A stretch of DNA of 64,000 nucleotides, taken from the NCBI GenBank assembly GCA_963748815.1, contig CAVVKJ010000010.1, positions 288,001 through 352,000 on the forward strand, in the 5' to 3' direction. How positions within the stretch are numbered: the stretch's first letter is position 1; each line of letters opens with the position of its first letter. Of this stretch, positions 44,452 to 57,909 are shown piece after piece. The DNA comes from an uncultured Gemmatimonadales bacterium (GTDB lineage Bacteria; Gemmatimonadota; Gemmatimonadetes; Gemmatimonadales; GWC2-71-9). Both the position numbers and the translations under genes were made by a program. The notes beneath the pieces were generated by a model, which worked only from the letters and a program-made list of their open reading frames with translations, did not search any database and was not told the DNA's origin.

Positions 44452-45321
44452 ATGCCCAAGACCGGCCACATCGCCCTTGCCGGCGTCCCCAACGTCGGAA
44501 AGTCCTCCCTCCTGAACACCCTGGTGGGGCAGCATCTCGCCATCGTCTCCCCCAAGCCCCAGGCCACCCGCCTGCCCACCGTCGGGCTCCGGACCGAGGG
44601 CGACACCCAGTTCGTCTTCCATGACCTCCCCGGACTCCTCGAGCCCCGCTACATGATGCAGGCCCGCATGCGGCAGGCGGCTCTCGACCAGCTGGCCCGG
44701 TGTCACGCCATCCTCCACCTGCATCCGGCGCCCGCCGGCCCCGCGCCGGCCTTCGCCTCCCTCGCCGGCCTCGAGGCGCCGCCGAGCGCGCCGGTGTTGA
44801 CCGTCTACACCAAGGCCGACCTCGTTCCTCCCGCGGCCCGAACGGCGCTTGGCGCCGACGCCCTCCTGGTCTCTGCCGAGACGGGGGAGGGGATCCCCGG
44901 GCTCCTGAAGCGCATCGAGGCCATGCTGCCCGAGGGCGAGTTCGAGTTCGACGCCGACGACGTCGGCACCCAGCCGCTGCGGTTCTTCGTGGTGGAGTAT
45001 CTCCGCGAGGCGGCCTTCGAGCTGCTGGAGGACGAGCTCCCCTATGCCTTCACCGCCGAGGTCGAGGAGTTTCGCGAGAACTCCTCGCCGGTGTACATTC
45101 GAGTGACGCTGCTGGTGGAGCGTGAGAGCCAAAAAGGCATGATCATCGGGCAGGGGGGTCGCACCATCAAGGCGATCGGCTCGCACGCGCGCGCCCGGCT
45201 CGAGGCGCTGCTCGGCGGGCCCGTCTACCTCGATTGCTGGGTCAAGGTACTGCCCAACTGGCGGCGGAACGCCGTCTCGCTCTCCCGGCTCGGATTTCCC
45301 GACGACCCCGCGCCGTCGTAA
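44452..45321 (+). CDS. era: GTPase Era
   Basis: GVPNVGKS, IVSPKPQATR, ELPYA, SQKGMIIGQGG (KH domain), VYLDCWVKV. Confidence 0.94.
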   Translation: MPKTGHIALAGVPNVGKSSLLNTLVGQHLAIVSPKPQATRLPTVGLRTEGDTQFVFHDLPGLLEPRYMMQARMRQAALDQLARCHAILHLHPAPAGPAPAFASLAGLEAPPSAPVLTVYTKADLVPPAARTALGADALLVSAETGEGIPGLLKRIEAMLPEGEFEFDADDVGTQPLRFFVVEYLREAAFELLEDELPYAFTAEVEEFRENSSPVYIRVTLLVERESQKGMIIGQGGRTIKAIGSHARARLEALLGGPVYLDCWVKVLPNWRRNAVSLSRLGFPDDPAPS

Positions 45322-45348
45322 ACCGGTCACCCTGCAACCCCACTTGCC

Positions 45349-45519
45349 ATGACCCTCGCGCCCGAACTGCTCGAAATCCTGGTCTGTCCGAAGTGCAAGG
45401 GCGACCTCGAATACCGCACGGAACCCGCCGAGGCGCTGGTCTGCCACGCCTGCGCGCTCGTCTACGCCGTCGAGGACGGGATCCCCGTGATGCTCGTCGA
45501 CGAGGCGAAACCACTGTGA
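45349..45519 (+). CDS. Trm112-family (YcaR-like) protein, 56 aa
   Basis: Read by hand: [18 protein letters not shown]...CHAC...[15 protein letters not shown]. Confidence 0.92.
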
Positions 45520-45535
45520 CTTCGTTTCGGGCCGC

Positions 45536-47378
45536 ATGACCGAACCCGCATCCACCGAGGGCGCCGGCCGCATTCTCGCCACCGCCCGCGAAGAGGCCGA
45601 GCGCCTTGGACACGCCCAGATCGGCACCGAGCACCTCTTGCTCGCGCTGCTGCGCGAACGGGAGAGCCTTCCCCCGGACGCCGCGGCCCAGTTGCCGAAG
45701 GACGTGGAAAACGCCGGCAAGCGGTTGATGAGCGCCGGCAAGCGGGGCACGCCGCCGGAAGAGGGGCTCGCGCTTTCCAGCCGCGCACGCCGCATCATGG
45801 ACGAGGCCGCCGCCGAGGCGGGGCGCCAGGGGGGCTCGACGATCACCCCCGAGCACCTCCTCATCGCGCTGCAGGGCGAGAATAAGGGCATCGCCGCCGC
45901 CATTCTGCGCGAAGCCAGCGGCAAGAAGAAGGGAGAGCGAGGGGGCCGCCCGCAGGGCGACACCCCTGCCGACCCCGATCGGTCCGGTCAGCGTGAGCGG
46001 CAGCGCGACCGCCAGCGGCAGGAGGCGGGGGAGGAGCCGGCCGAATCCCCGACCGAGGCAGCCGTCACCCCCGCGAGCCCACCCGAGCGCCCAGCACGCG
46101 CCGAGCGACCCGAACGCCCCGAACGGGGCGAGCGCGGCCGCGGTCGGGACCGGGAGAAGCGCGGGCCGGCGGCGCCCGAGAAGGGCCGGGAGCGCCGGGA
46201 CCGCAAGCCAGACGGGAAGGCGCCCTCCGCGCCGACACCGCCGCCCCATCGCGGCGCCGCCTCGGAACCAGCGGCACCGGAGGCGCCACCGCTCCCGCGG
46301 CGCGTCGCGCCGGTGGTCGGCGACCCCTTCCGGCTCAAGCTGCGGCACCTCCTCCTCCCCGCCGTTCCAGCCGCCATCTGGCTGGCGCGCCAGGGCGCCG
46401 ACCCGTACCTCGTTTTCGCGGTGGCCTGCCTGGCGGTCCTCCCGCTCGCCCAGTATCTCGGCGAAGCGACGGAGCATCTCGGGGAACGGACCGGGCCGAC
46501 GATCGGCGGGTTCCTGAACGCGACCTTCGGCAACGCCGCCGAACTGATCATCGCCATCTTCGCGCTGCAGGCCGGGCTCATCGAGCTGGTCAAGGCGTCG
46601 ATCATCGGCAGCATCCTCGGCAACCTGCTGCTCATTCTTGGACTGTCGCTGATGGCCGCGGGGATGAACAAGCCGCTGTTCGCATTCAATCGCACCGCCG
46701 CCGGCATGGCGCGGCGCCATGCTGGCCCTGGCGGTGGCGGCGCTGGTCTTCCCGGCGCTCTTCCACGCGACGCATCCGGAGGCGTCGCTGCTCGTGGAGC
46801 TGCACCTCTCCGAAGCGGTGGCGATCGTGCTCGGGGCGGTCTACCTCCTGTCGCTGCTCTTCTCCCTCCGGACCCACCGCCGTCTGCTCGGGGGCGATCC
46901 ACACCCCACGGTGCACCCGGTCTGGGGGGTGCCCAGGGCGCTCGGCGTGCTGACCCTGTCCACCGTCGGCATCGCCGTCGTGTCGGAAATCCTGGTCCAT
47001 GCCATCGGCCCGATGACCGAGGGGGGCATCTTTTCCCAGGCGTTTCTCGGCCTGATCATCATCCCGGTCATCGGCAACGCGGCCGAGCATGCATCGGCGG
47101 TAGTGGTGGCCCGGAAGGGAAAGGTCGACCTCGCGATCCAGATCGCGATGGGCTCGAGCACCCAGGTGGCGCTCTTCGTGGCGCCGGCCCTGATCGCCAT
47201 CGGTGTTCTTGTCGGAGCGGACATGAACCTGGTGTTCACGCCCTTCCAGGTCCTGGCACTCGCTCTGGCGACCGGTGTCAGCGCCCTCATCACGCTGGAC
47301 GGCGAATCGCACTGGTTCGAGGGGGTGCAGTTGCTGGCCCTCTACGTCTTGGTCGGCATTGCGGCGTATTTCATTTGA
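45536..47378 (+). CDS. Clp N-terminal (Clp-R) domain + charged linker + Ca2+/H+ antiporter (CAX) fusion, ~613 aa (apparent +1 error at ~46712)
   Basis: AREEAERLGHAQIGTEHLLLALL and SSRARRIM...PEHLLIAL Clp repeats are in frame with NATFGNAAE, GSILGNLLL; after the shift come GNAAEH, GSSTQVALF, DGESHWFEG. Confidence 0.85.
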
Positions 47379-47415
47379 CTTCGCCGGGGCACGCTCCTAA
47401 GTTAGTTGTGGATAA
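47375..47415 (+). promoter_or_regulatory. sigma70 promoter (TTGACT-17-TAAGTT) with consensus DnaA box TGTGGATAA at 47407-47415
   Basis: -35 at 47375-47380, -10 at 47398-47403; minus strand reads TTATCCACA. Confidence 0.6.
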
Positions 47416-47435
47416 ACTCTTACGGGGTGCCTTGG

Positions 47436-48419
47436 GTGCGTAACCGCCCGACGATTCTCTTCCATTCGCCGGACGCGCGCCCAGTGCCAGCAGTTCTCCG
47501 GCGCTGGGCCGAGGCCCGGGGCTTTCCCACACTGGAGTTTCGGGGTGGGGCGGAACTGGAGTCCATCGTGCTCCGCGGCGCCTCGTGCCTGATTTTTCTG
47601 GACGGCGACGAGTCCGGCGGGGAGGGACTCGCGATGGTGCGGCGCCTGAAGGCCGACGCCTTCACCGCGATCGTGCCGGCGGTCGTCCTATCGGGCACGC
47701 ACGCGCCGGAAAAGGTGGGGGAGTGGTTTGCGGCCGGTGCCGACGAGGTCATCACCGGGTTCTTCGCCCCGGCGGAGCAGCGCGCGCGGCTCGACGCGAT
47801 GCTGCTGCGGACTGAGCGCGACGTCTCGGTGCATCCCTCGACCCGGCTGCCGGGGACGACGGAAATCGAGCGGGCCATCCGGGTGCAGCTGGAGTCGGGC
47901 GACGAGTTCGCGGTGTGCTACGCCGACCTCGACCATTTCAAGGAGTACAACGACCGGTACAGCTACTACGACGGCGACCGGGTCATCTTCATCCTCTCGC
48001 GGATCCTGCACGACGTGGTCCGTGGCATGACCGGTTCGGCGGGGTTTGTCGGGCATATCGGCGGCGACGACTTCATCTTCGTTATCCCGTCGGCCCACGT
48101 GGCCGAGGTGTGCGGCGAGATCCTGTCGGTGTTCGACACCCTGATCCCGCTGCAGTACAACGACCAGGACCGGCGGGCGGGGTACTTTTTCGGCAAGGAT
48201 CGTCGGGGGCAGCTGCACCGGGTGCCGTTGATGACGCTTTCGATCGGGATCGTCACCAACCGGAACCGCCGGTTCGCGCACCCGGCGCAGGTGAGCGAGC
48301 TCGCGACGGAAATGAAGAGCTACGCCAAGACCCTTCCGGGCTCGGTGTTCGTGGTTGACCGCCGTCATGCGCCCGAGGGCGAATCGCCGGCCACCGGCGA
48401 AGGCCGGGACAAGCGTTGA
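47436..48419 (+). CDS. degenerate receiver domain + GGDEF-family domain (GGDDF)
   Basis: AGADEVI REC remnant; YADLDHFKEYNDRY, GDRVI, GHIGGDDF, TLSIG. Start uncertain. Confidence 0.87.
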   Translation: MRNRPTILFHSPDARPVPAVLRRWAEARGFPTLEFRGGAELESIVLRGASCLIFLDGDESGGEGLAMVRRLKADAFTAIVPAVVLSGTHAPEKVGEWFAAGADEVITGFFAPAEQRARLDAMLLRTERDVSVHPSTRLPGTTEIERAIRVQLESGDEFAVCYADLDHFKEYNDRYSYYDGDRVIFILSRILHDVVRGMTGSAGFVGHIGGDDFIFVIPSAHVAEVCGEILSVFDTLIPLQYNDQDRRAGYFFGKDRRGQLHRVPLMTLSIGIVTNRNRRFAHPAQVSELATEMKSYAKTLPGSVFVVDRRHAPEGESPATGEGRDKR

Positions 48420-48429
48420 GGACGCCGCA

Positions 48430-49143
48430 ATGAACGTGACCTGCCCAGGCTGTTCGACCGTCTTCCGGGTGGACCCCGCCAAGGTCCCCGCCGGTGGCGT
48501 GCGCGCGCGCTGCTCCGTCTGTCGCGCGGTGTTCCGGGTGGAATCCGAGGCGGCCGCGCCGGTCGCGTCCGCCGCGCCGGCCCTGGCGTCGACGCATGTG
48601 CCTCCGCCCCCTCGGACGGCGCCGTCCATTCCGTCGGCGCCCGCCGCCGCTCCGCCGCCGCCCCGTGCGTCCGCCCCGGCGCCGGCCTACCCGTCCGACC
48701 ACGGTGTCGGTGCGCCGCCGTTCGTGGTCCCCCCGCCGAGCCCGGTCGTGCCGCGACCCGCGGCGCCGACGTATCCGCCCGCGCCGTCCGCCGGCGCCCC
48801 GCACGTGCGGCCGCCGTTTTCCTCGCGGCCGGTGAGCATCGCCACGCCGTCCGCGCCACGGACCGCGTCGCCCCGCCCGTCGGTCAACCCCTTCCTCTCC
48901 AAGGACCCGGGGCAGAAGGCGCGGCGACTCGCCCGGGCGCTCGTGTCCGACATCGCGGTGTACCACCCCGAGAAGCGGCTGGAGGGGCTCCGGCACGGCA
49001 CCCTGAAGCAGATCTTCGACGACGAGATCAAGAAGAGCTGGGAAGAGTACGCCGGACAGGTGGGCCGCGACCTGGCGGAGTCCACCACCCACTTCAACGA
49101 CGCGCTGAACGAGATCCTGGGAGACGGCAGCAAGATCTTCTGA
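48430..49143 (+). CDS. MJ0042-type zinc-ribbon protein with Pro/Ala linker and helical C-terminal domain
   Basis: MNVTCPGCSTVFRVD...RCSVC; KARRLARALVSDI. Confidence 0.85.
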   Translation: MNVTCPGCSTVFRVDPAKVPAGGVRARCSVCRAVFRVESEAAAPVASAAPALASTHVPPPPRTAPSIPSAPAAAPPPPRASAPAPAYPSDHGVGAPPFVVPPPSPVVPRPAAPTYPPAPSAGAPHVRPPFSSRPVSIATPSAPRTASPRPSVNPFLSKDPGQKARRLARALVSDIAVYHPEKRLEGLRHGTLKQIFDDEIKKSWEEYAGQVGRDLAESTTHFNDALNEILGDGSKIF

Positions 49144-49155
49144 CTTGGCACGCCC

Positions 49156-49219
49156 GGCGTGAAACGCGGAACGGCGGCGTGTGTGCGCACCGGTTCCCGT
49201 TTCACGCCTTCTGTTTTCT
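49156..49219 (+). terminator. long imperfect hairpin with U-rich tail upstream of prfB
   Basis: GGCGTGAAACG...CGTTTCACGCC followed by TTCTGTTTTCT. Confidence 0.55.
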
Positions 49220-49246
49220 GGCACCACGGACCGACCGAGGACGGAC

Positions 49247-50353
49247 ATGGCTGGAGTGACCGAACGACTCGAGGCGTTGCAGGCCCAGGCCGACGAACTG
49301 CGGAGATTTCTTTGACGTAACGCGCCGGCAGTCCCGCCTCTCGGAGCTGGAATCGGCCCAGATGGACCCGACCTTCTGGTCCAACCAGGAGCGGGCGCGG
49401 ACCATCGTCCAGGAAATCAAGCAGCTCAAGTCGTGGATCACGCCGTTCGCCGACCTGTCCGGCCGGCTGGCGGACGCCGTGGACATGGCGGAGCTCCTCG
49501 ACGCCGAACCGGATGCGGCGATGGCCGCGGAGCTCGAGGCGGAGGTGGACCGGCTGGAGCGGGCCGCGACCGCGCTGGAGGTGCGCGGGATGCTGCAGGG
49601 CCCCGACGACGCGCGCGACGCCATCCTGACCATCCACCCCGGTGCCGGCGGCACGGAGTCGCAGGACTGGGCCGAGATGCTCATGCGGATGTACGTGCGC
49701 TGGGCCGAGCGGCGCGGGTACGCCGTCAGCGTCCTCGACCTGGTCGAGGGGGAGGAGGCGGGGATCAAGTCGGTGACGCTCGAGCATCGCCGGGGAGTTC
49801 GCGTACGGCTACCTCCGGGCGGAGAAGGGGGTGCACCGCCTGGTGCGCATTTCCCCCTTCGATTCGCAGGCGCGCCGCCACACCTCGTTCGCCTCGGTTT
49901 TCGTCTATCCCGACATCGACGACACCATCGAGGTGGACCTGCGCGACGAGGACATCCGGATGGACGTCTACCGTGCCTCCGGGGCCGGCGGCCAGCACGT
50001 GAACAAGACCTCGTCGGCCGTGCGGCTGACGCACGAGCCGACCGGCATCGTGGTCGCCTGCCAGCAGGAGCGCAGCCAGGGGAAGAACAAGGCGACCGCC
50101 ATGAAGATGCTGCGCGCCGCGCTCTATCAGCGGAAGCTGGAGGAGCAGGAGGCGGCCAAGGCGGCCGTCGAGGCCACCAAGACCGACAACTCCTGGGGCA
50201 ACCAGATTCGGTCGTACGTATTCCAGCCCTATACCATGGTCAACGACCATCGCATCGGAACTGAAGGTCGGCGATGTGCATCGCGTCATGGACGGGGACA
50301 TCGATGCCTTCATCGAGGCGTACCTGAAGAGCGCCGGAGGGACAGCCGCGTGA
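49247..50353 (+). CDS. prfB: peptide chain release factor 2 (programmed +1 frameshift at 49310-49316; additional apparent errors near 49785, 50254)
   Basis: ELRRFL* then DVTRR...; [17 protein letters not shown] (SPF), [16 protein letters not shown]. Confidence 0.96.
49301..49316 (+). other. RF2 autoregulatory +1 frameshift cassette (GGAG SD-like + CTT TGA C)
   Basis: CGGAGA TTT CTT TGA C at codon 22-23. Confidence 0.93.
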
Positions 50354-53159: not shown

Positions 53160-53857
53160 GCGTCGTGCTGGAGGCCCGCGGACTGCGGAAGACCTATCTC
53201 GGCGGCGACGGCGCGCCGATCGACGTGCTCGCGGGAGTGGACCTGAGCGTCTCCCGGGGTGAGTTCGTCGCGATCGTCGGGGCGAGCGGGGCGGGAAAGA
53301 GCACGCTGCTGCACCTCCTCGGCGCGCTCGACGAGCCGACGGCGGGAGAGGTCCTGCTTGACGGGGCACGGTACGCCGATCGGAGCGCCGCGGAGCTCGC
53401 CGCCCTCCGCAACGCGCGGATCGGCTTCGTCTTCCAGTTTCACCACCTGTTGCGGGAGTTCACCGCGCGCGAAAACGTCATGATGCCGCTCTTGATTGCG
53501 GGGGCGGCGGATGCCGAGGCGGGCGCCCGCGCCGACACGCTGCTCGAGGCGGTGGGGCTCTCGGCGCGCCGGCTGCACCTGCCGACGCAGCTTTCCGGTG
53601 GCGAGCAGCAGCGGGTGGCGGTGGCGCGCGCGCTCGCGAACGCTCCGGCGGTGGTGCTGGCCGACGAGCCGTCGGGGAATCTCGATCACGCGCACAGCGA
53701 GAATCTGCACACGATCTTCGCCGGGCTGGCGCGCGACTTCCAGACCGCCCTCGTGGTGGTGACCCACAACCGGCATCTCGCCGCCCGGGCCGACCGTCTC
53801 CTCGCCGTGGAAGGCGGACTCCTGGTGCCCGCCGGACGGGAGGAGGGACCGACGTGA
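53156..53857 (+). CDS. lolD: lipoprotein-releasing ABC ATPase
   Basis: GASGAGKS, GFVFQFHHLL, LSGGEQQR, ADEPSGNLD. Confidence 0.9.
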   Translation: MSVVLEARGLRKTYLGGDGAPIDVLAGVDLSVSRGEFVAIVGASGAGKSTLLHLLGALDEPTAGEVLLDGARYADRSAAELAALRNARIGFVFQFHHLLREFTARENVMMPLLIAGAADAEAGARADTLLEAVGLSARRLHLPTQLSGGEQQRVAVARALANAPAVVLADEPSGNLDHAHSENLHTIFAGLARDFQTALVVVTHNRHLAARADRLLAVEGGLLVPAGREEGPT

Positions 53858-54354
53858 CCTGCCAGCAGTGCGAGGAACGCGAGGCGGTCGTCCTCCTGAA
53901 GAAGGTCGAGGGGGGCGACGTGCGCGTGCTGCACCTCTGCGAGAAGTGCGCGGCGGAACGGGGGGTGCCGGAGGGGGAGGAGTCGGCCAAGACGCCGCTC
54001 GGTGCCTTCCTCGCCGCGATGGGGACCGATCTCGCCGCCGAATCGCCCCTCAGCAGCGGCGCCGCCCTCGCGGAGTGCCCGGGGTGCGGGGCCACGCTGC
54101 AGGACTTCCGGCGGACCGGCCGCCTGGGGTGCGCCACCTGCTGGACCACCTTCGAGGGACCGCTCCGGGGGCTCACCCGCCGGGTGCACGGCGCCACGCG
54201 GCACGTCGGCGAGCACTACGTGGAGCCGGGTGCGGCGCCGACCGATCAGATTGCGCTCGTGCGGCGGCTGCGGGAACAGCTGGCGGCGGCGGTCAGCGAT
54301 GAGAATTTCGAGCAGGCCGCCGAGCTGCGGGATCGCCTGCGGGGGCTCGAATGA
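53854..54354 (+). CDS. mcsA: McsA, activator of protein arginine kinase
   Basis: Four CxxC motifs, GRLGC, C-terminal UVR motif ENFEQAAELRD. Confidence 0.92.
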   Translation: MTCQQCEEREAVVLLKKVEGGDVRVLHLCEKCAAERGVPEGEESAKTPLGAFLAAMGTDLAAESPLSSGAALAECPGCGATLQDFRRTGRLGCATCWTTFEGPLRGLTRRVHGATRHVGEHYVEPGAAPTDQIALVRRLREQLAAAVSDENFEQAAELRDRLRGLE

Positions 54355-55430
54355 TCGACCTGACGCTCCTGGCGGACGGCGGAATCGGCTGGATCGACGC
54401 CTCGGGCCCGGCAAGCCCGCTGGTGTTGTCCACCCGGATCCGCCTGGCGCGTAATCTCGCCGGGCGACCCTTCGCGACGCGGAATGGCGCGAGCGATCGG
54501 GAGGCGATTGCGGAGGCGGTGAGCGGGGCGGTGGCCGGCACGGAGGCGCTGGGGCAGGCCGCCAGCTTTCGGCTCGACCGGCTCGATCTGCGCGACCGGC
54601 TCCTGCTGCACGAGCGGCACCTGGTCAGCAAGGAACTCGCGGGACTGGGTGGGGAACCGGTTCCGGTGGGGGCGGCGCTGCTGGTGCAGGACCGGGTCGG
54701 GGCGATGGTCAACGAGGAGGATCACCTCCGGTTGCAGGGGGTGGTTTCAGGGTTCGCGCTGGAGGCGGCGTACGCCGAGGTCGACCGGCTGGACAGTGAA
54801 CTGGGGCAACGACTTGCCTTCGCATTTCACCCTGAGTTTGGTTACCTTTCCGCCTGTCCAACCAACGTCGGAACCGGGCTGCGCGCCTCTGTTTTGATCC
54901 ATCTGCCCGGGCTGGTGTTGACCAAGGAAATCTCGAAGGTGCTGCAGGGGCTGGCCCAGGTCGGGCTCGCCGTGCGGGGCCTGTACGGCGAGGGCAGCGA
55001 GGTCGTCGGCAATTTCTTCCAGCTGTCGAACCAGACGACGCTCGGCAAGTCGGAGCGTGACCTCCTCGATCACCTTGGCAAGATGGTGCGCGAGGTGATG
55101 ACCTACGAGGACGAGGCGCGTGCGGTGCTCTTGCGGGATGCGCGCGCGGTGATCGAGGACAAGGTGTGGCGCGCGTACGGGCTGCTGCGATACGCCCGGG
55201 CGCTATCCTACGAGGAGGCGATGAACCTCCTCAGCGGCGTGCGACTCGGCGTGGGACTGCAGGTGATTCCCGACGTCGGATTCTACGCCCTCAACAAGAT
55301 GCTGGTTCACACGCAGCAGGCGCATCTGGCCTCGGCGCACGGCGTGGCGCTCGACGATCCGTCGCTCGCCGTCCGACGCGCTGACTTTGTGCGAACGCTG
55401 CTGCAAGACGAAGGACGGCGAGCAGGGTGA
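54351..55430 (+). CDS. mcsB: protein arginine kinase McsB
   Basis: STRIRLARN, ERHLVS, NEEDHLR, CPTNVGTGLRAS, RGLYGEG, SNQTTLG. Confidence 0.95.
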   Translation: MIDLTLLADGGIGWIDASGPASPLVLSTRIRLARNLAGRPFATRNGASDREAIAEAVSGAVAGTEALGQAASFRLDRLDLRDRLLLHERHLVSKELAGLGGEPVPVGAALLVQDRVGAMVNEEDHLRLQGVVSGFALEAAYAEVDRLDSELGQRLAFAFHPEFGYLSACPTNVGTGLRASVLIHLPGLVLTKEISKVLQGLAQVGLAVRGLYGEGSEVVGNFFQLSNQTTLGKSERDLLDHLGKMVREVMTYEDEARAVLLRDARAVIEDKVWRAYGLLRYARALSYEEAMNLLSGVRLGVGLQVIPDVGFYALNKMLVHTQQAHLASAHGVALDDPSLAVRRADFVRTLLQDEGRRAG

Positions 55431-55434
55431 CCCC

Positions 55435-57909
55435 ATGAACGGCTACAACTTCACTGACCGCGTCCGGAAGGTCCTGCAGATGGCCCGCGAAGAGGCGGCC
55501 CGCCTGCACCACGAGTACGTCGGCACCGAGCACATTCTCCTCGGCCTCATCCGCGAGGGGGAGGGCGTCGCTGCCGGCGTGCTGCAGAACCTGAATGTGG
55601 ACCTCGAGGACATCCAGCAGAAAATCGAGGAGACGGTCAAGCGCGGGAAGGCGGCGGCCGCCGCCGGCCCCGACCTGCCGTACACCTCGCGCGCCAAGAA
55701 GGTGCTCGAACTGGCGATGGTCGAGGCCCGCGAGCTGAACCATTCCTACGTCGGCACCGAGCACCTCCTGCTCGGGCTGCTGCGCGAGGAGAAGGGCATC
55801 GCCGCGCAGGTGCTCGCCGACGCCGGCGTCAGCCTGGAGCAGTCGCGCGCCGAGACGCTCCGGCTCCTCGGCAGCGACCTGCCGGCGCCGACCAGCGCCG
55901 CGCCGACCGGGGCAGCCGCAGCCGGCCGCCAAGTCCGAGAAGAAGTCCAAGACGCCGGCGCTCGACCATTTCTGCCGCGACCTGACGCAGCTCGCCGCGG
56001 ACAGACCAGCTCGACCCCACGATCGGCCGCGCGACCGAGATCGAGCGGGTCATGGAAATCCTGGCGCGCCGCAAGAAGAACAACCCGGTCCTCATCGGCG
56101 AGCCCGGCGTCGGCAAGACGGCCATCGTGGAGGGGCTCGCGCTCCTCATCGCGAGCGGCCAGTGCCCCGACGTCCTCCGGGATCACCGCGTCCTGTCCCT
56201 CGACATGGCGGCGGTCATCGCCGGCACGAAGTACCGGGGGCAGTTCGAGGAGCGGCTCAAGGCGGTCATGAACGAGATCGCCCAGAACCGCCACGTCATG
56301 CTGTTCATCGACGAGCTGCACACCCTCGTGGGGGCGGGCGCCGCCGAAGGCGCCATCGACGCCTCGAACATGCTGAAGCCCGCGCTGGCCCGCGGCGAGC
56401 TCCAGTGCGTCGGCGCGTCGACGCTGAACGAGTACCGGAAGTACATCGAGAAGGACGGTGCCCTCGAGCGCCGGTTCCAGACGGTCGTCGTGGAGCCGCC
56501 CTCGATCGACGAGACCTTCGAGATCCTGAAGGGGCTCCGCAAGAAGTACGAGGACCATCACCGGGTGAGCATTCCCGACGAGACCCTCAAGGCCGCGGCG
56601 CAGCTCTCCGAGCGCTACATCACCGACCGGTTCCTGCCGGACAAGGCCATCGACGTCATCGACGAGGCGGGCGCCCGCGCCCGGCTCGCCTCGCAGGCGC
56701 CGCCGCCCGAGGTGGCCGCGCTCAAGGGCGACCTCGACAAGGTCAACACCGACAAGGAAGAGGCGGTCCGCGACCAGAACTTCGAGCGCGCCGCGTCGCT
56801 GCGCGACCGGGAGCGCGACCTCCAGAACCAGATCCGCCTCCGGCAGGAGGAATGGGAGAAGGACCGGCAGACCCGCCGCCCGATCATCGACGAGGAGGCG
56901 ATCGCCTTCATCGTCTCCCGCTGGACCGGCATTCCCGTGACCCGGATCCAGGAGGCGGAGGCGTCGCGCCTGCTCCGGATGGAGGAGGAAATCCACGAGG
57001 CGGTCGTCGGCCAGGACGAGGCGATCCGGGCGGTGTCCCGGGCCATCCGCCGCTCCCGCGCCGGCCTCAAGGATCCCAACCGTCCGATCGGGTCGTTCAT
57101 CTTCTCCGGCCCCACCGGCGTCGGCAAGACGGAACTGGCGCGCGCGCTGGCCAAGTTCCTCTTCGCCGACCCGTCGGCGCTCATCCGGGTCGACATGTCG
57201 GAGTACATGGAGAAGTTCTCCGTCTCCCGCCTGATCGGCGCCCCGCCGGGCTACGTGGGCTACGAGGACTCGGGCACGCTGACGAAGCGGTGCGGCGCAA
57301 GCCGTACTCGGTGGTCCTCCTCGACGAGATCGAGAAGGCGCACCCCGACGTGTTCAACATCCTGCTGCAGGTGCTCGACGAGGGGCACCTGACCGACAAC
57401 TACGGCCGCGTCATCGACTTCAAGAACACCGTGGTCATCATGACCTCGAACGTCGGGGCCCGGGACATCACGCAAGGCCAAGACGCTCGGCTTTCACACG
57501 CAGGACGCCGCGGCGTCGTTCGAGACGATGGCCGGACAAGGTCAAGGAGGAGATGGCGAAGGTCTTCAACCCGGAGTTCCTCAACCGCCTCGACGACGTG
57601 ATCGTCTTCCACCCGCTCGGGCGGGAGCACATCGCCGAGATCGTCAGCATCCTGCTGCGCGAGGTCGCGCGGCGCCTCGGCGACGAGGTGCGGCTGACGC
57701 AGGCGGCGACCGACTTCCTCGCGGAGCAGGGCTACGACCAGCAGTACGGCGCCCGCCCGCTCAAGCGCGCCATTCAGAAGTTCGTGGAGGATCCGTTGAG
57801 CGAGAAGATCCTGCTCGGCGAGATCGGCCGGGGCGACGAGATCGAAGTCGATCTCGCGGCCGACGGCAAGTCGCTGGCGTTCCGCGCCCTGACCGGAACC
57901 CAGGCCTGA
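55435..57909 (+). CDS. clpC: ATP-dependent Clp protease ATPase ClpC (apparent indel errors near 55912, 56003, 57287, 57473, 57534)
   Basis: FTDR...GTEH x2, [18 protein letters not shown]-domain, [11 protein letters not shown] loop, GARPLKR. Confidence 0.95.

Follow-up and report, generated by a model that had tools for sequence, protein, structure and literature searches.

Does a reading frame that runs from a Clp N-domain into a Ca2+/H+ antiporter encode a real protein, and what might its first part do for its second? This question is raised by a gene of an uncultured Gemmatimonadales bacterium at 45536–47378, on the forward strand of the window—the whole 64,000-nucleotide stretch of DNA that was analyzed. 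With an extra base of the assembly discounted, the gene encodes 613 residues comprising a Clp N-domain, a linker and a CAX antiporter. A sequence-only reading had proposed that phosphoarginine (pArg) written by McsB engages the N-domain and switches Ca2+/H+ exchange. What is known of phosphoarginine mostly concerns its role as a tag for degradation, in Firmicutes and Actinobacteria.

A conserved fusion and its range

The frame at 45536–46711 encodes 392 residues: Pfam Clp_N in two stretches (E 5e-17), then a linker of low complexity, then the first of the Na_Ca_ex repeats. The remainder of the CAX, the second half of a Na_Ca_ex protein, is encoded by the frame at 46713–47378. In the window copy, neither a stop nor a frameshift separates Clp-N from CAX. 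The two frames are separated by an extra base at 46711–46712: contigs (not reads) from all four public runs, belonging to two studies, omit one letter at either position. A single contig of run X1 spans 45300–46448 free of gaps—the whole N-domain, the linker and the start of the membrane part—and hence bridges 45900–46350, the stretch whose continuity had been put forward for checking. Within the genus, residues 1–392 are matched stop-free in 14 of 16 genomes, the remaining two stopping at contig edges, and both CAX repeats are in frame with the N-domain in 13 of those 14. Intact homologues have 548–631 residues, and relatives do not encode two separate genes as a rule: PF02861 and PF01699 occur in one chain in 116 of the best 120 of 4584 matches. 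The earlier description of one frame joining Clp-N, linker and CAX, broken only by a single extra base, is borne out by the frames and the run contigs.

The frameshift in the fusion gene is an assembly error, in an assembly that is error-prone. Additional frameshifts relative to the G008 locus are found in prfB (window 49200–50350) and clpC (55435–57909), and these are probably assembly errors as well. As the copies in G001 and G149 are likewise frameshifted, one might regard the fusion as an artefact of assembly or gene calling, or as a pseudogene. This is extremely improbable and was rejected, since homologues are single-chain, the genus copies are in frame, independent contigs lack the extra base and the gene is under purifying selection. 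Within the genus (12 genomes, 66 non-independent pairs), dN/dS is 0.10 for the N-domain, 0.146 for the CAX and 0.51 for the linker; the N-domain itself is under purifying selection. The Clp-N–CAX fusion is confirmed as real, conserved and selected.

Among the loci sampled, a profile of the N-domain located it in frame with CAX in 44 genomes, counting that of the window. They belong to 19 coded genera of a single family (f1); both counts are lower bounds, as the loci were drawn from some of the 132 genomes of the family that have a close CAX. Among the best 80 of 560 named GTDB loci, the N-domain occurs in 23, with Gemmatimonad* names except for one 'uncultured bacterium', and no fusion outside Gemmatimonadota names was found among these 80. 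Of the single-chain proteins among the best 120 of 4584 matches, those that carry a source organism belong to Gemmatimonadales or Gemmatimonadota. Two clusters of the ESM Atlas, with 76 and 101 members, are of the Clp-repeat/Na_Ca_ex type, and Gemmatimonadota is their commonest phylum. The architecture is already in databases, under machine-made names. In the published literature, searched by listings and abstract starts and also with the pocket residue names, no paper describing a Clp-N–CAX architecture was found, in line with the sequence-only reading, which knew of no described transporter of this kind.

A tree of the CAX domain with 58 rows—41 fused and 17 unfused, with duplicates, frameshifted and truncated loci excluded and G032 and G405 missed by the motif filter—needs four changes of fusion state, of which at least three are forced by well-supported branches. 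The branch that holds all fused rows has an SH-aLRT of 89 in a quick tree. On the simplest reading, the N-domain was gained once and lost at least three times (G194; G084/G077; G275/G396). An intact CAX directly follows trm112, with no Clp-N nearby, in G194, G084, G077, G275, G032 and G405; the contig of G396 ends too early to judge this junction. Going by these loci, the N-domain is shown to be dispensable in sister lineages; the losses are clean and leave an intact CAX beside trm112, as the loss of a regulatory add-on would. In the outgroup loci L032–L038 and L047–L050, the slot of the N-domain, between trm112 and CAX or GGDEF, is taken by a PorV-like gene (weak Pfam match), often together with a second gene. 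Neither gene occupies this slot in fused loci or in the unfused loci nested among them.

The N-domain and its two pockets

Residues 1–128 (45536–45919) form a double Clp repeat, with a PF02861 score of 62.2 bits against a cut-off of 20.7. The model of this domain (pLDDT 89.8) has seven helices, the eighth helix of ClpC not being formed in this genus, and matches B. subtilis ClpC (5HBN) with Z 14.7 and rmsd 3.0 over 124 residues. Fold scores are similar for the N-domains of ClpC, ClpA and ClpB (Z 14–15.6), and ClpT is also among the matches. Mean sequence identity is 30% to the local ClpC, 25% to a stand-alone paralogue and 21% to ClpB; S82 and K117 are common to the N-domain and Gemmatimonadales ClpC, and B. 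subtilis has P82 and E117. Sequence comparison thus places the N-domain as a derivative of ClpC, and its origin is likely a copy of the 5' end of clpC, 10 kb downstream. Residues 7–126 of 5HBN align to it ungapped, and the B. subtilis numbering is therefore transferable. While the fold and—in this genus—the pArg2 residues are shared with ClpC (5HBN and Gemmatimonadales ClpC alike), the fusion proteins differ from it by the absence of the AAA+ ring, the loss of the pArg1 pocket, the missing helix 8 in this genus and an identity of only ~30% across the fusion family. AAA+ modules are absent altogether, Clp_N and Na_Ca_ex being the only domains.

Hereby, the residues of the two pockets deserve a closer description. 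T31, T81 and R83 are taken to be pArg2 residues, an assignment to which the repeat symmetry also leads. According to PMC12583610, E32 marks pArg2, and E106, T7 and R9 mark pArg1; the ClpC2 preprint describes a pocket formed by a helix start and two loops (PMC13345244). By the 74-residue symmetry of the repeats, we infer that pArg2 comprises 30–32, 81–83 and 115–119, and pArg1 comprises 104–106, 7–9 and 41–45. In the window protein, the putative pArg2 pocket would thus consist of G30-T31-E32-H33 (45623–45634), the helix cap S81-S82-R83-A84 (45776–45787) and, as its third element by repeat symmetry, the loop E115-x-K117-G118-I119 (45878–45892), with the set T31, E32, S81 and R83 complete. The putative pArg1 pocket retains only the degenerate helix cap T7-E8-G9 (45554–45562) and the degenerate second TEH motif T104-P105-E106-H107 (45845–45856), G9 and P105 being the altered residues.

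For a family-wide count, 175 fusion N-domains were reduced to 75 representatives below 80% identity (33 at 60%), with 27 ClpC N-domains as controls. Retained among the 75 are G30 (99%), E32 (75/75), H33 (99%), S82 (91%), A84 (99%), K/R117 (94%) and G118 (73/75). Decayed are R9 (0/75), T105 (1%), E106 (23/75) and G44 (23%), and residues 7–9 are missing in about one-third of the representatives; the pArg1 site (T7, R9, T105, E106) is intact in none. Both residue sets are kept in all 27 controls, and the neighboring ClpC shares this two-site pattern. The alignment hence upholds the earlier by-eye view that one pocket is kept (GTEH and SSR) and the other degenerate (TEG, TPEH), with the neighboring ClpC keeping both. 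The conserved set crosses the repeats—G30/E32/H33 of repeat 1 (99–100%) with S82/A84 (91–99%) and K/R117-G118 (94–97%) of repeat 2—and the symmetry mates of these residues at 7–9, 41–45 and 104–106 have decayed. This crossover argues that one assembled pocket is kept, rather than that a whole repeat has decayed. From these alignments, the pArg1 pocket is shown to be lost across the fusion family, with selection acting on the E32 pocket, that is, the putative pArg2.

Family-wide, E32 and G118 at the core of the pocket are kept, and the residues on its phosphate side drift. The canonical set T/S31, E32, T/S81 and R83 is complete in 8 of the 75 representatives (2 of the 33 at 60%), namely in this genus and its nearest relatives. 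The cap is RSG or [ST]SH in most other genera: R81-S82-G83 is found in at least 35 of the 75 and H83 in 18, while position 31 is Ala or Val in about one-fifth. Arg stands at 81 or 83 in 47 of the 75 and His at 83 in 18 more; the movement of Arg between these two positions may be a compensating swap.

Is the E32 pocket kept for a ligand, or for the fold? E32 and G118 might serve as a helix cap in folding, with the domain acting via another surface—for instance in oligomer assembly or through the hydrophobic groove—or being only weakly useful. The ClpB and the stand-alone Clp-N paralogue of this genome lack E32 and keep E106. Hence E32 is not required for the fold as such; in none of the Clp-N domains examined in the genome are both Glu missing, though, so that one of them may be needed and the cap is perhaps stabilizing. 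The drift of the phosphate-side residues, the loss of the domain at least three times on the tree and its average identity of 30% to ClpC also speak for a folding role. We nevertheless judge it unlikely, because the exposed S82, K/R117 and Arg/His at 81/83 are constrained as well, and because of the N-domain dN/dS of 0.10 within the genus. A kept pocket does not by itself name its ligand, since the same pockets also accept MecA, the M-domain and acidic helix ends, as described in PMC13345244 and PMC12583610.

Further ClpC N-domains are found in the order on other proteins. In G034 (contig C82; L186:1709-2587, + strand), one with both pArg pockets intact is joined to a GntR-family HTH (PF02861 and PF00392), possibly a ClpC2-like pArg-sensing regulator outside Actinobacteria. 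The genome of the window itself (G000:C8; L183:2462-3070, − strand) and G055 (L184:1798-2367, + strand) encode a stand-alone double repeat followed at the C-terminus by one hydrophobic helix, likely membrane-anchored ClpC N-domains; in the G000:C8 copy, E106 is kept and E32 lost. Two family f2 genomes (L185:1746-2405, − strand; L187:1458-2174, + strand) have a double repeat with GTQH as the second motif and a small C-terminal domain without a Pfam match. As copies occur on a GntR HTH, a hydrophobic helix and a small domain, the ClpC N-domain is used as a module in Gemmatimonadales.

Antiporter, linker and gene neighborhood

The CAX domain (46340–47378) is identified by its fold matches and by the intact homologue P0003 (86% identical), which scores 324.3 bits with TIGR00378 against an equivalog cut-off of 211.15. 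Top fold matches of the model are Vcx1 (Foldseek E 3e-20), YfkE (TM-score 0.94 by target, rmsd 2.3–2.5) and AtCAX1—the CaCA fold with two inverted repeats. The alpha-1 repeat GNAAE (46529–46543; YfkE G68, N69, E72) and the alpha-2 repeat GNAAEH (47073–47090; YfkE N252, E255, H256) are present in 112 of 112 homologues. The window protein has equivalents of YfkE G68, N69, E72, N99, N252, E255, H256, S278 and Q281; among the 112, the Glu, His and Asn are invariant, and S541 and Q544 are each kept in 111. YfkE uses these residues for Ca2+, H+ and phosphate, as stated in PMC10227063. The alignment shows the transport residues to be intact, and the CAX part is predicted to be a working Ca2+/H+ exchanger. 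The same genome carries two more distant CaCA/CAX paralogues without an N-domain match (G000:C3:1541-3018 and G000:C19:52608-53586), both apparently broken in the assembly. Another regulatory fusion, P0141, joins a Ser/Thr kinase domain to a CAX in 666 residues; it is a single representative and might be an artefact of gene calling.

An acidic central loop, which is typical of CAX proteins without strictly defining them, is absent from the window protein. In its place stands the short, weakly acidic THRRLLGGDPHPTVHPVW (46872–46925), which holds a single acidic residue; YfkE and Vcx1 carry runs of them here. Its earlier description as a short His/Pro loop proved accurate. The median number of acidic residues in the loop is 2 both for 53 fused proteins and for 7 unfused close relatives, and 6 (range 1–8) for 45 CAX of other phyla. 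Since all seven unfused close relatives keep the same His/Pro-type loop, it is a trait of the clade and not a partner of the N-domain; as a docking site for the N-domain or a mark of the fusion, it was rejected. YfkE has an intracellular Ca2+ mini-sensor, which we take to lie in this central loop.

The linker (45920–46339), which ends in RRVAP (46298–46312), is predicted to be disordered, with pLDDT under 50. Across 74 representatives, linkers range from 25 to 198 residues and are net positive throughout; Arg makes up about one-fifth of them (median ~20), with only 2–9 Arg in some members, and an R/K-hydrophobic-(A)P motif lies near the end in 47. The window linker has 23 Arg in frame versus 31 and 27 in the two other frames, and 24 Glu/Asp versus 3 and 7 out of frame. 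Hence, Arg-richness alone does not point to McsB, as the DNA is GC-rich and its other two frames have no less Arg. The linker had been characterized as Arg/Glu/Pro-rich; its mixture of Arg with Glu/Asp is specific to the frame, its Arg-richness is not. The full-length model, with the linker disordered, has a pTM of 0.64, as for two independent domains, and a complex prediction of N-domain 1–134 with CAX part 245–609 (alignment A1) scored 0.00, which is weightless either way.

Such a long, variable and disordered linker would also suit a decoy or scaffold tethered to the membrane: the Clp-N domain would catch pArg proteins, McsB or a ClpC partner, and the CAX would work independently as a mere anchor. 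Tethering of this kind is likely to exist in the order, in the Clp-N proteins with a single C-terminal hydrophobic helix of this genome and of G055. A similar decoy role has reportedly been proposed for ClpC3. For ClpC2, sequestration of pArg proteins is proposed in the preprint (PMC13345244). Against such a role stands the cost of the anchor, a 350-residue transporter with invariant transport residues, and the retention of the fusion with the same single CAX across at least 19 genera, which makes it a somewhat unlikely explanation.

The fusion gene lies between a Trm112-like gene (45349–45519), its upstream neighbor in fused and unfused loci, and a receiver-like/GGDEF gene (47406–48419), its downstream neighbor in fused, unfused and CAX-less loci. 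The conserved string era-trm112-(X)-GGDEF-zinc ribbon-prfB-lysS-lolE-lolD-mcsA-mcsB-clpC-bamA is alike in all three types of genomes. It includes mcsA-mcsB-clpC at 53854–57909 (starts at 53854, 54351 and 55435; all these genes on the forward strand), of which clpC—frameshifted in the assembly—probably gave rise to the N-domain. Of 20 loci, 18 have mcsB in the same string (5 of them fused, 7 unfused and 6 without CAX there), and in the other two, the contig ends before mcsB. All 20 loci also have, as a fixed member of the string placed after the GGDEF gene and before prfB (48355–49143 in the window), a gene for a zinc-ribbon protein of the MJ0042 type, with a long linker of Pro and Ala and a conserved C-terminal domain.

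Of the 251 genomes of the family, 234 have McsB-type matches and 132 have a close CAX; for the 165 good genomes, the numbers are 161 and 86. The genus-match, paralogue and McsB tallies include the unpublished genomes G030, G076, G177, G272, G329 and G423, from which no locus, alignment or tree row was taken. Synteny with mcsAB-clpC was rejected as support for a link, the same string being present in unfused and CAX-less loci, and the joint occurrence of CAX and mcsB was discarded as a criterion, McsB being present in 161 of 165 good genomes. With the string and McsB near-universal in the family, both are uninformative on the pArg idea. The downstream position of mcsA-mcsB-clpC given in the sequence-only reading is hence correct and carries no specific link to the fusion, and the co-occurrence it had suggested examining lends no support.

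The genome could nevertheless have a set of pArg writer, eraser and reader available, judging by gene content: McsA/McsB-like genes, which are best NCBIfam matches below the curated cut-offs (364 versus 385, PRK01059); a YwlE-like phosphatase with CTGNTCRS after a Sua5/YwlC-like gene (L181:1468-1965, + strand; G000:C10:267710); and ClpC. ClpS and CtsR were not found in this genome (86% complete), nor a CIRCE-like site or a sigma-70-type promoter in the window region. Heat-shock control is hence not supported by these searches. With writer, eraser and a two-pocket ClpC present, and with a disordered linker of ~20 Arg in the median, McsB might mark the linker with pArg for turnover: the pocket would mask or present the mark and thereby set the rate of removal by ClpCP, transport itself being ungated. 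ClpC activation requires pArg together with an unfolded stretch, according to PMC12583610. As linker Arg is not above that of other frames and falls to 2–9 in some members, we hold this to be quite unlikely.

Precedents and a candidate mechanism

Compared with the CAX antiporters YfkE (4KJR/4KJS), Vcx1 (4K1C) and Arabidopsis CAX1 (9VSA/C/D), the fusion has the same fold, 37–43% identity and the same site residues; it differs by the folded Clp-N domain and the linker of 25–198 residues before the membrane part, and by its short, weakly acidic central loop. PMC13591097 reports that control of plant CAX1 comes from its cytosolic N-terminus. The regulator there is 36 residues long and responds to phosphorylation of serine; the fusion has a folded Clp-N domain instead.

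The other precedent is ClpC2 of Actinobacteria, in which a Clp-N domain detached from the unfoldase keeps one of two pockets. ClpC3 and plant ClpT are presumably Clp-N domains detached from the unfoldase as well. In the preprint, the retained pocket of ClpC2 binds pArg at ~5 uM and requires its Thr for binding, and the protein acts, in competition with an acidic helix, as an allosteric pArg switch on a non-proteolytic effector (PMC13345244). By the description given there, the pocket left in ClpC2 is the one where helix 1 starts, opposite to that of the fusion (PMC13345244). Its effector is a DNA-binding repressor, not a transporter, and its Clp domain is C-terminal to a DNA-binding part, whereas that of the fusion is N-terminal; pArg binding was measured for ClpC2 and is a prediction for the fusion. 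In the literature searched, ClpC2 is the sole non-proteolytic pArg reader found, and no study of pArg signaling in Gemmatimonadota was found. By its domains, the fusion is a CAX family member carrying a Clp_N family member, and neither ClpC nor ClpC2. By analogy, its mode of action may resemble that of ClpC2 in the single pocket and the non-proteolytic output, and that of CAX1 in being controlled from the N-terminus.

Our main reading, with a probability of roughly 0.4, is that an optional, tethered one-pocket reader regulates a working exchanger. In the proposed mechanism, the E32 pocket would bind an arginine-bearing ligand. In this genus, the ligand would most likely be pArg that McsB places on the linker of the protein itself or on damaged proteins; where the caps are altered, as in other genera, it may be unmodified Arg or an acidic peptide. 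Depending on whether the pocket is occupied, the N-terminal tether would be in a restraining or in a released state, and the exchange rate would change accordingly. In favor of a one-pocket reader, conservation crosses the repeats in the way one pocket assembles, the ClpC controls keep both pockets, E32 is not needed for the fold, and dN/dS of the N-domain is below that of the CAX; Arg or His is kept at 81/83 in most representatives, McsA/McsB-like and YwlE-like genes are present, ClpC2 and CAX1 offer precedents, and relatives reuse the ClpC N-domain on a GntR HTH. Against gating stand the variable linker with its inconstant end motif, the model resembling two independent domains and a loop change in the CAX that does not track the N-domain; neighborhood and McsB co-occurrence give no support.

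As to the ligand, gating by pArg is plausible by the ClpC2 precedent, and with pArg as ligand the one-pocket reader seems doubtful overall; with another peptide, it is improbable. Against the pArg form stand the full canonical set in only 8 of 75 representatives and Ala or Val at position 31. Furthermore, in S. aureus ClpC, the pocket important for activation by pArg is the E106 one (PMC12583610), which is the pocket lost in the fusion N-domain. The pArg-gated exchanger of the sequence-only reading thus stands in part: it gains from the selected fusion, the single pocket, the writer, eraser and reader genes and the ClpC2 precedent (PMC13345244), and it is weakened by the drifting phosphate-side residues, the old mcsB string, the shared loop and linkers with as few as 2 Arg. 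That this would be the first ion transporter gated by arginine phosphorylation, with McsB-written pArg switching Ca2+/H+ or perhaps Ca2+-phosphate export, is accordingly worded here as a tentative and rather doubtful proposal.

A selected Clp reader domain on a transporter would extend signaling through pArg or Clp pockets to ion homeostasis and to a phylum for which the searches found no study of it; protein-damage signals may thus tune calcium export. If so, the fusion would be one of several plug-in pArg sensors of Gemmatimonadales—on a CAX, on a GntR regulator and on a membrane anchor. Even with a ligand other than pArg, the natural series of pocket variants (SSR, RSG, TSH) would be informative on the ligands of Clp pockets, and the unfused sister proteins provide natural controls for the effect of the N-domain.
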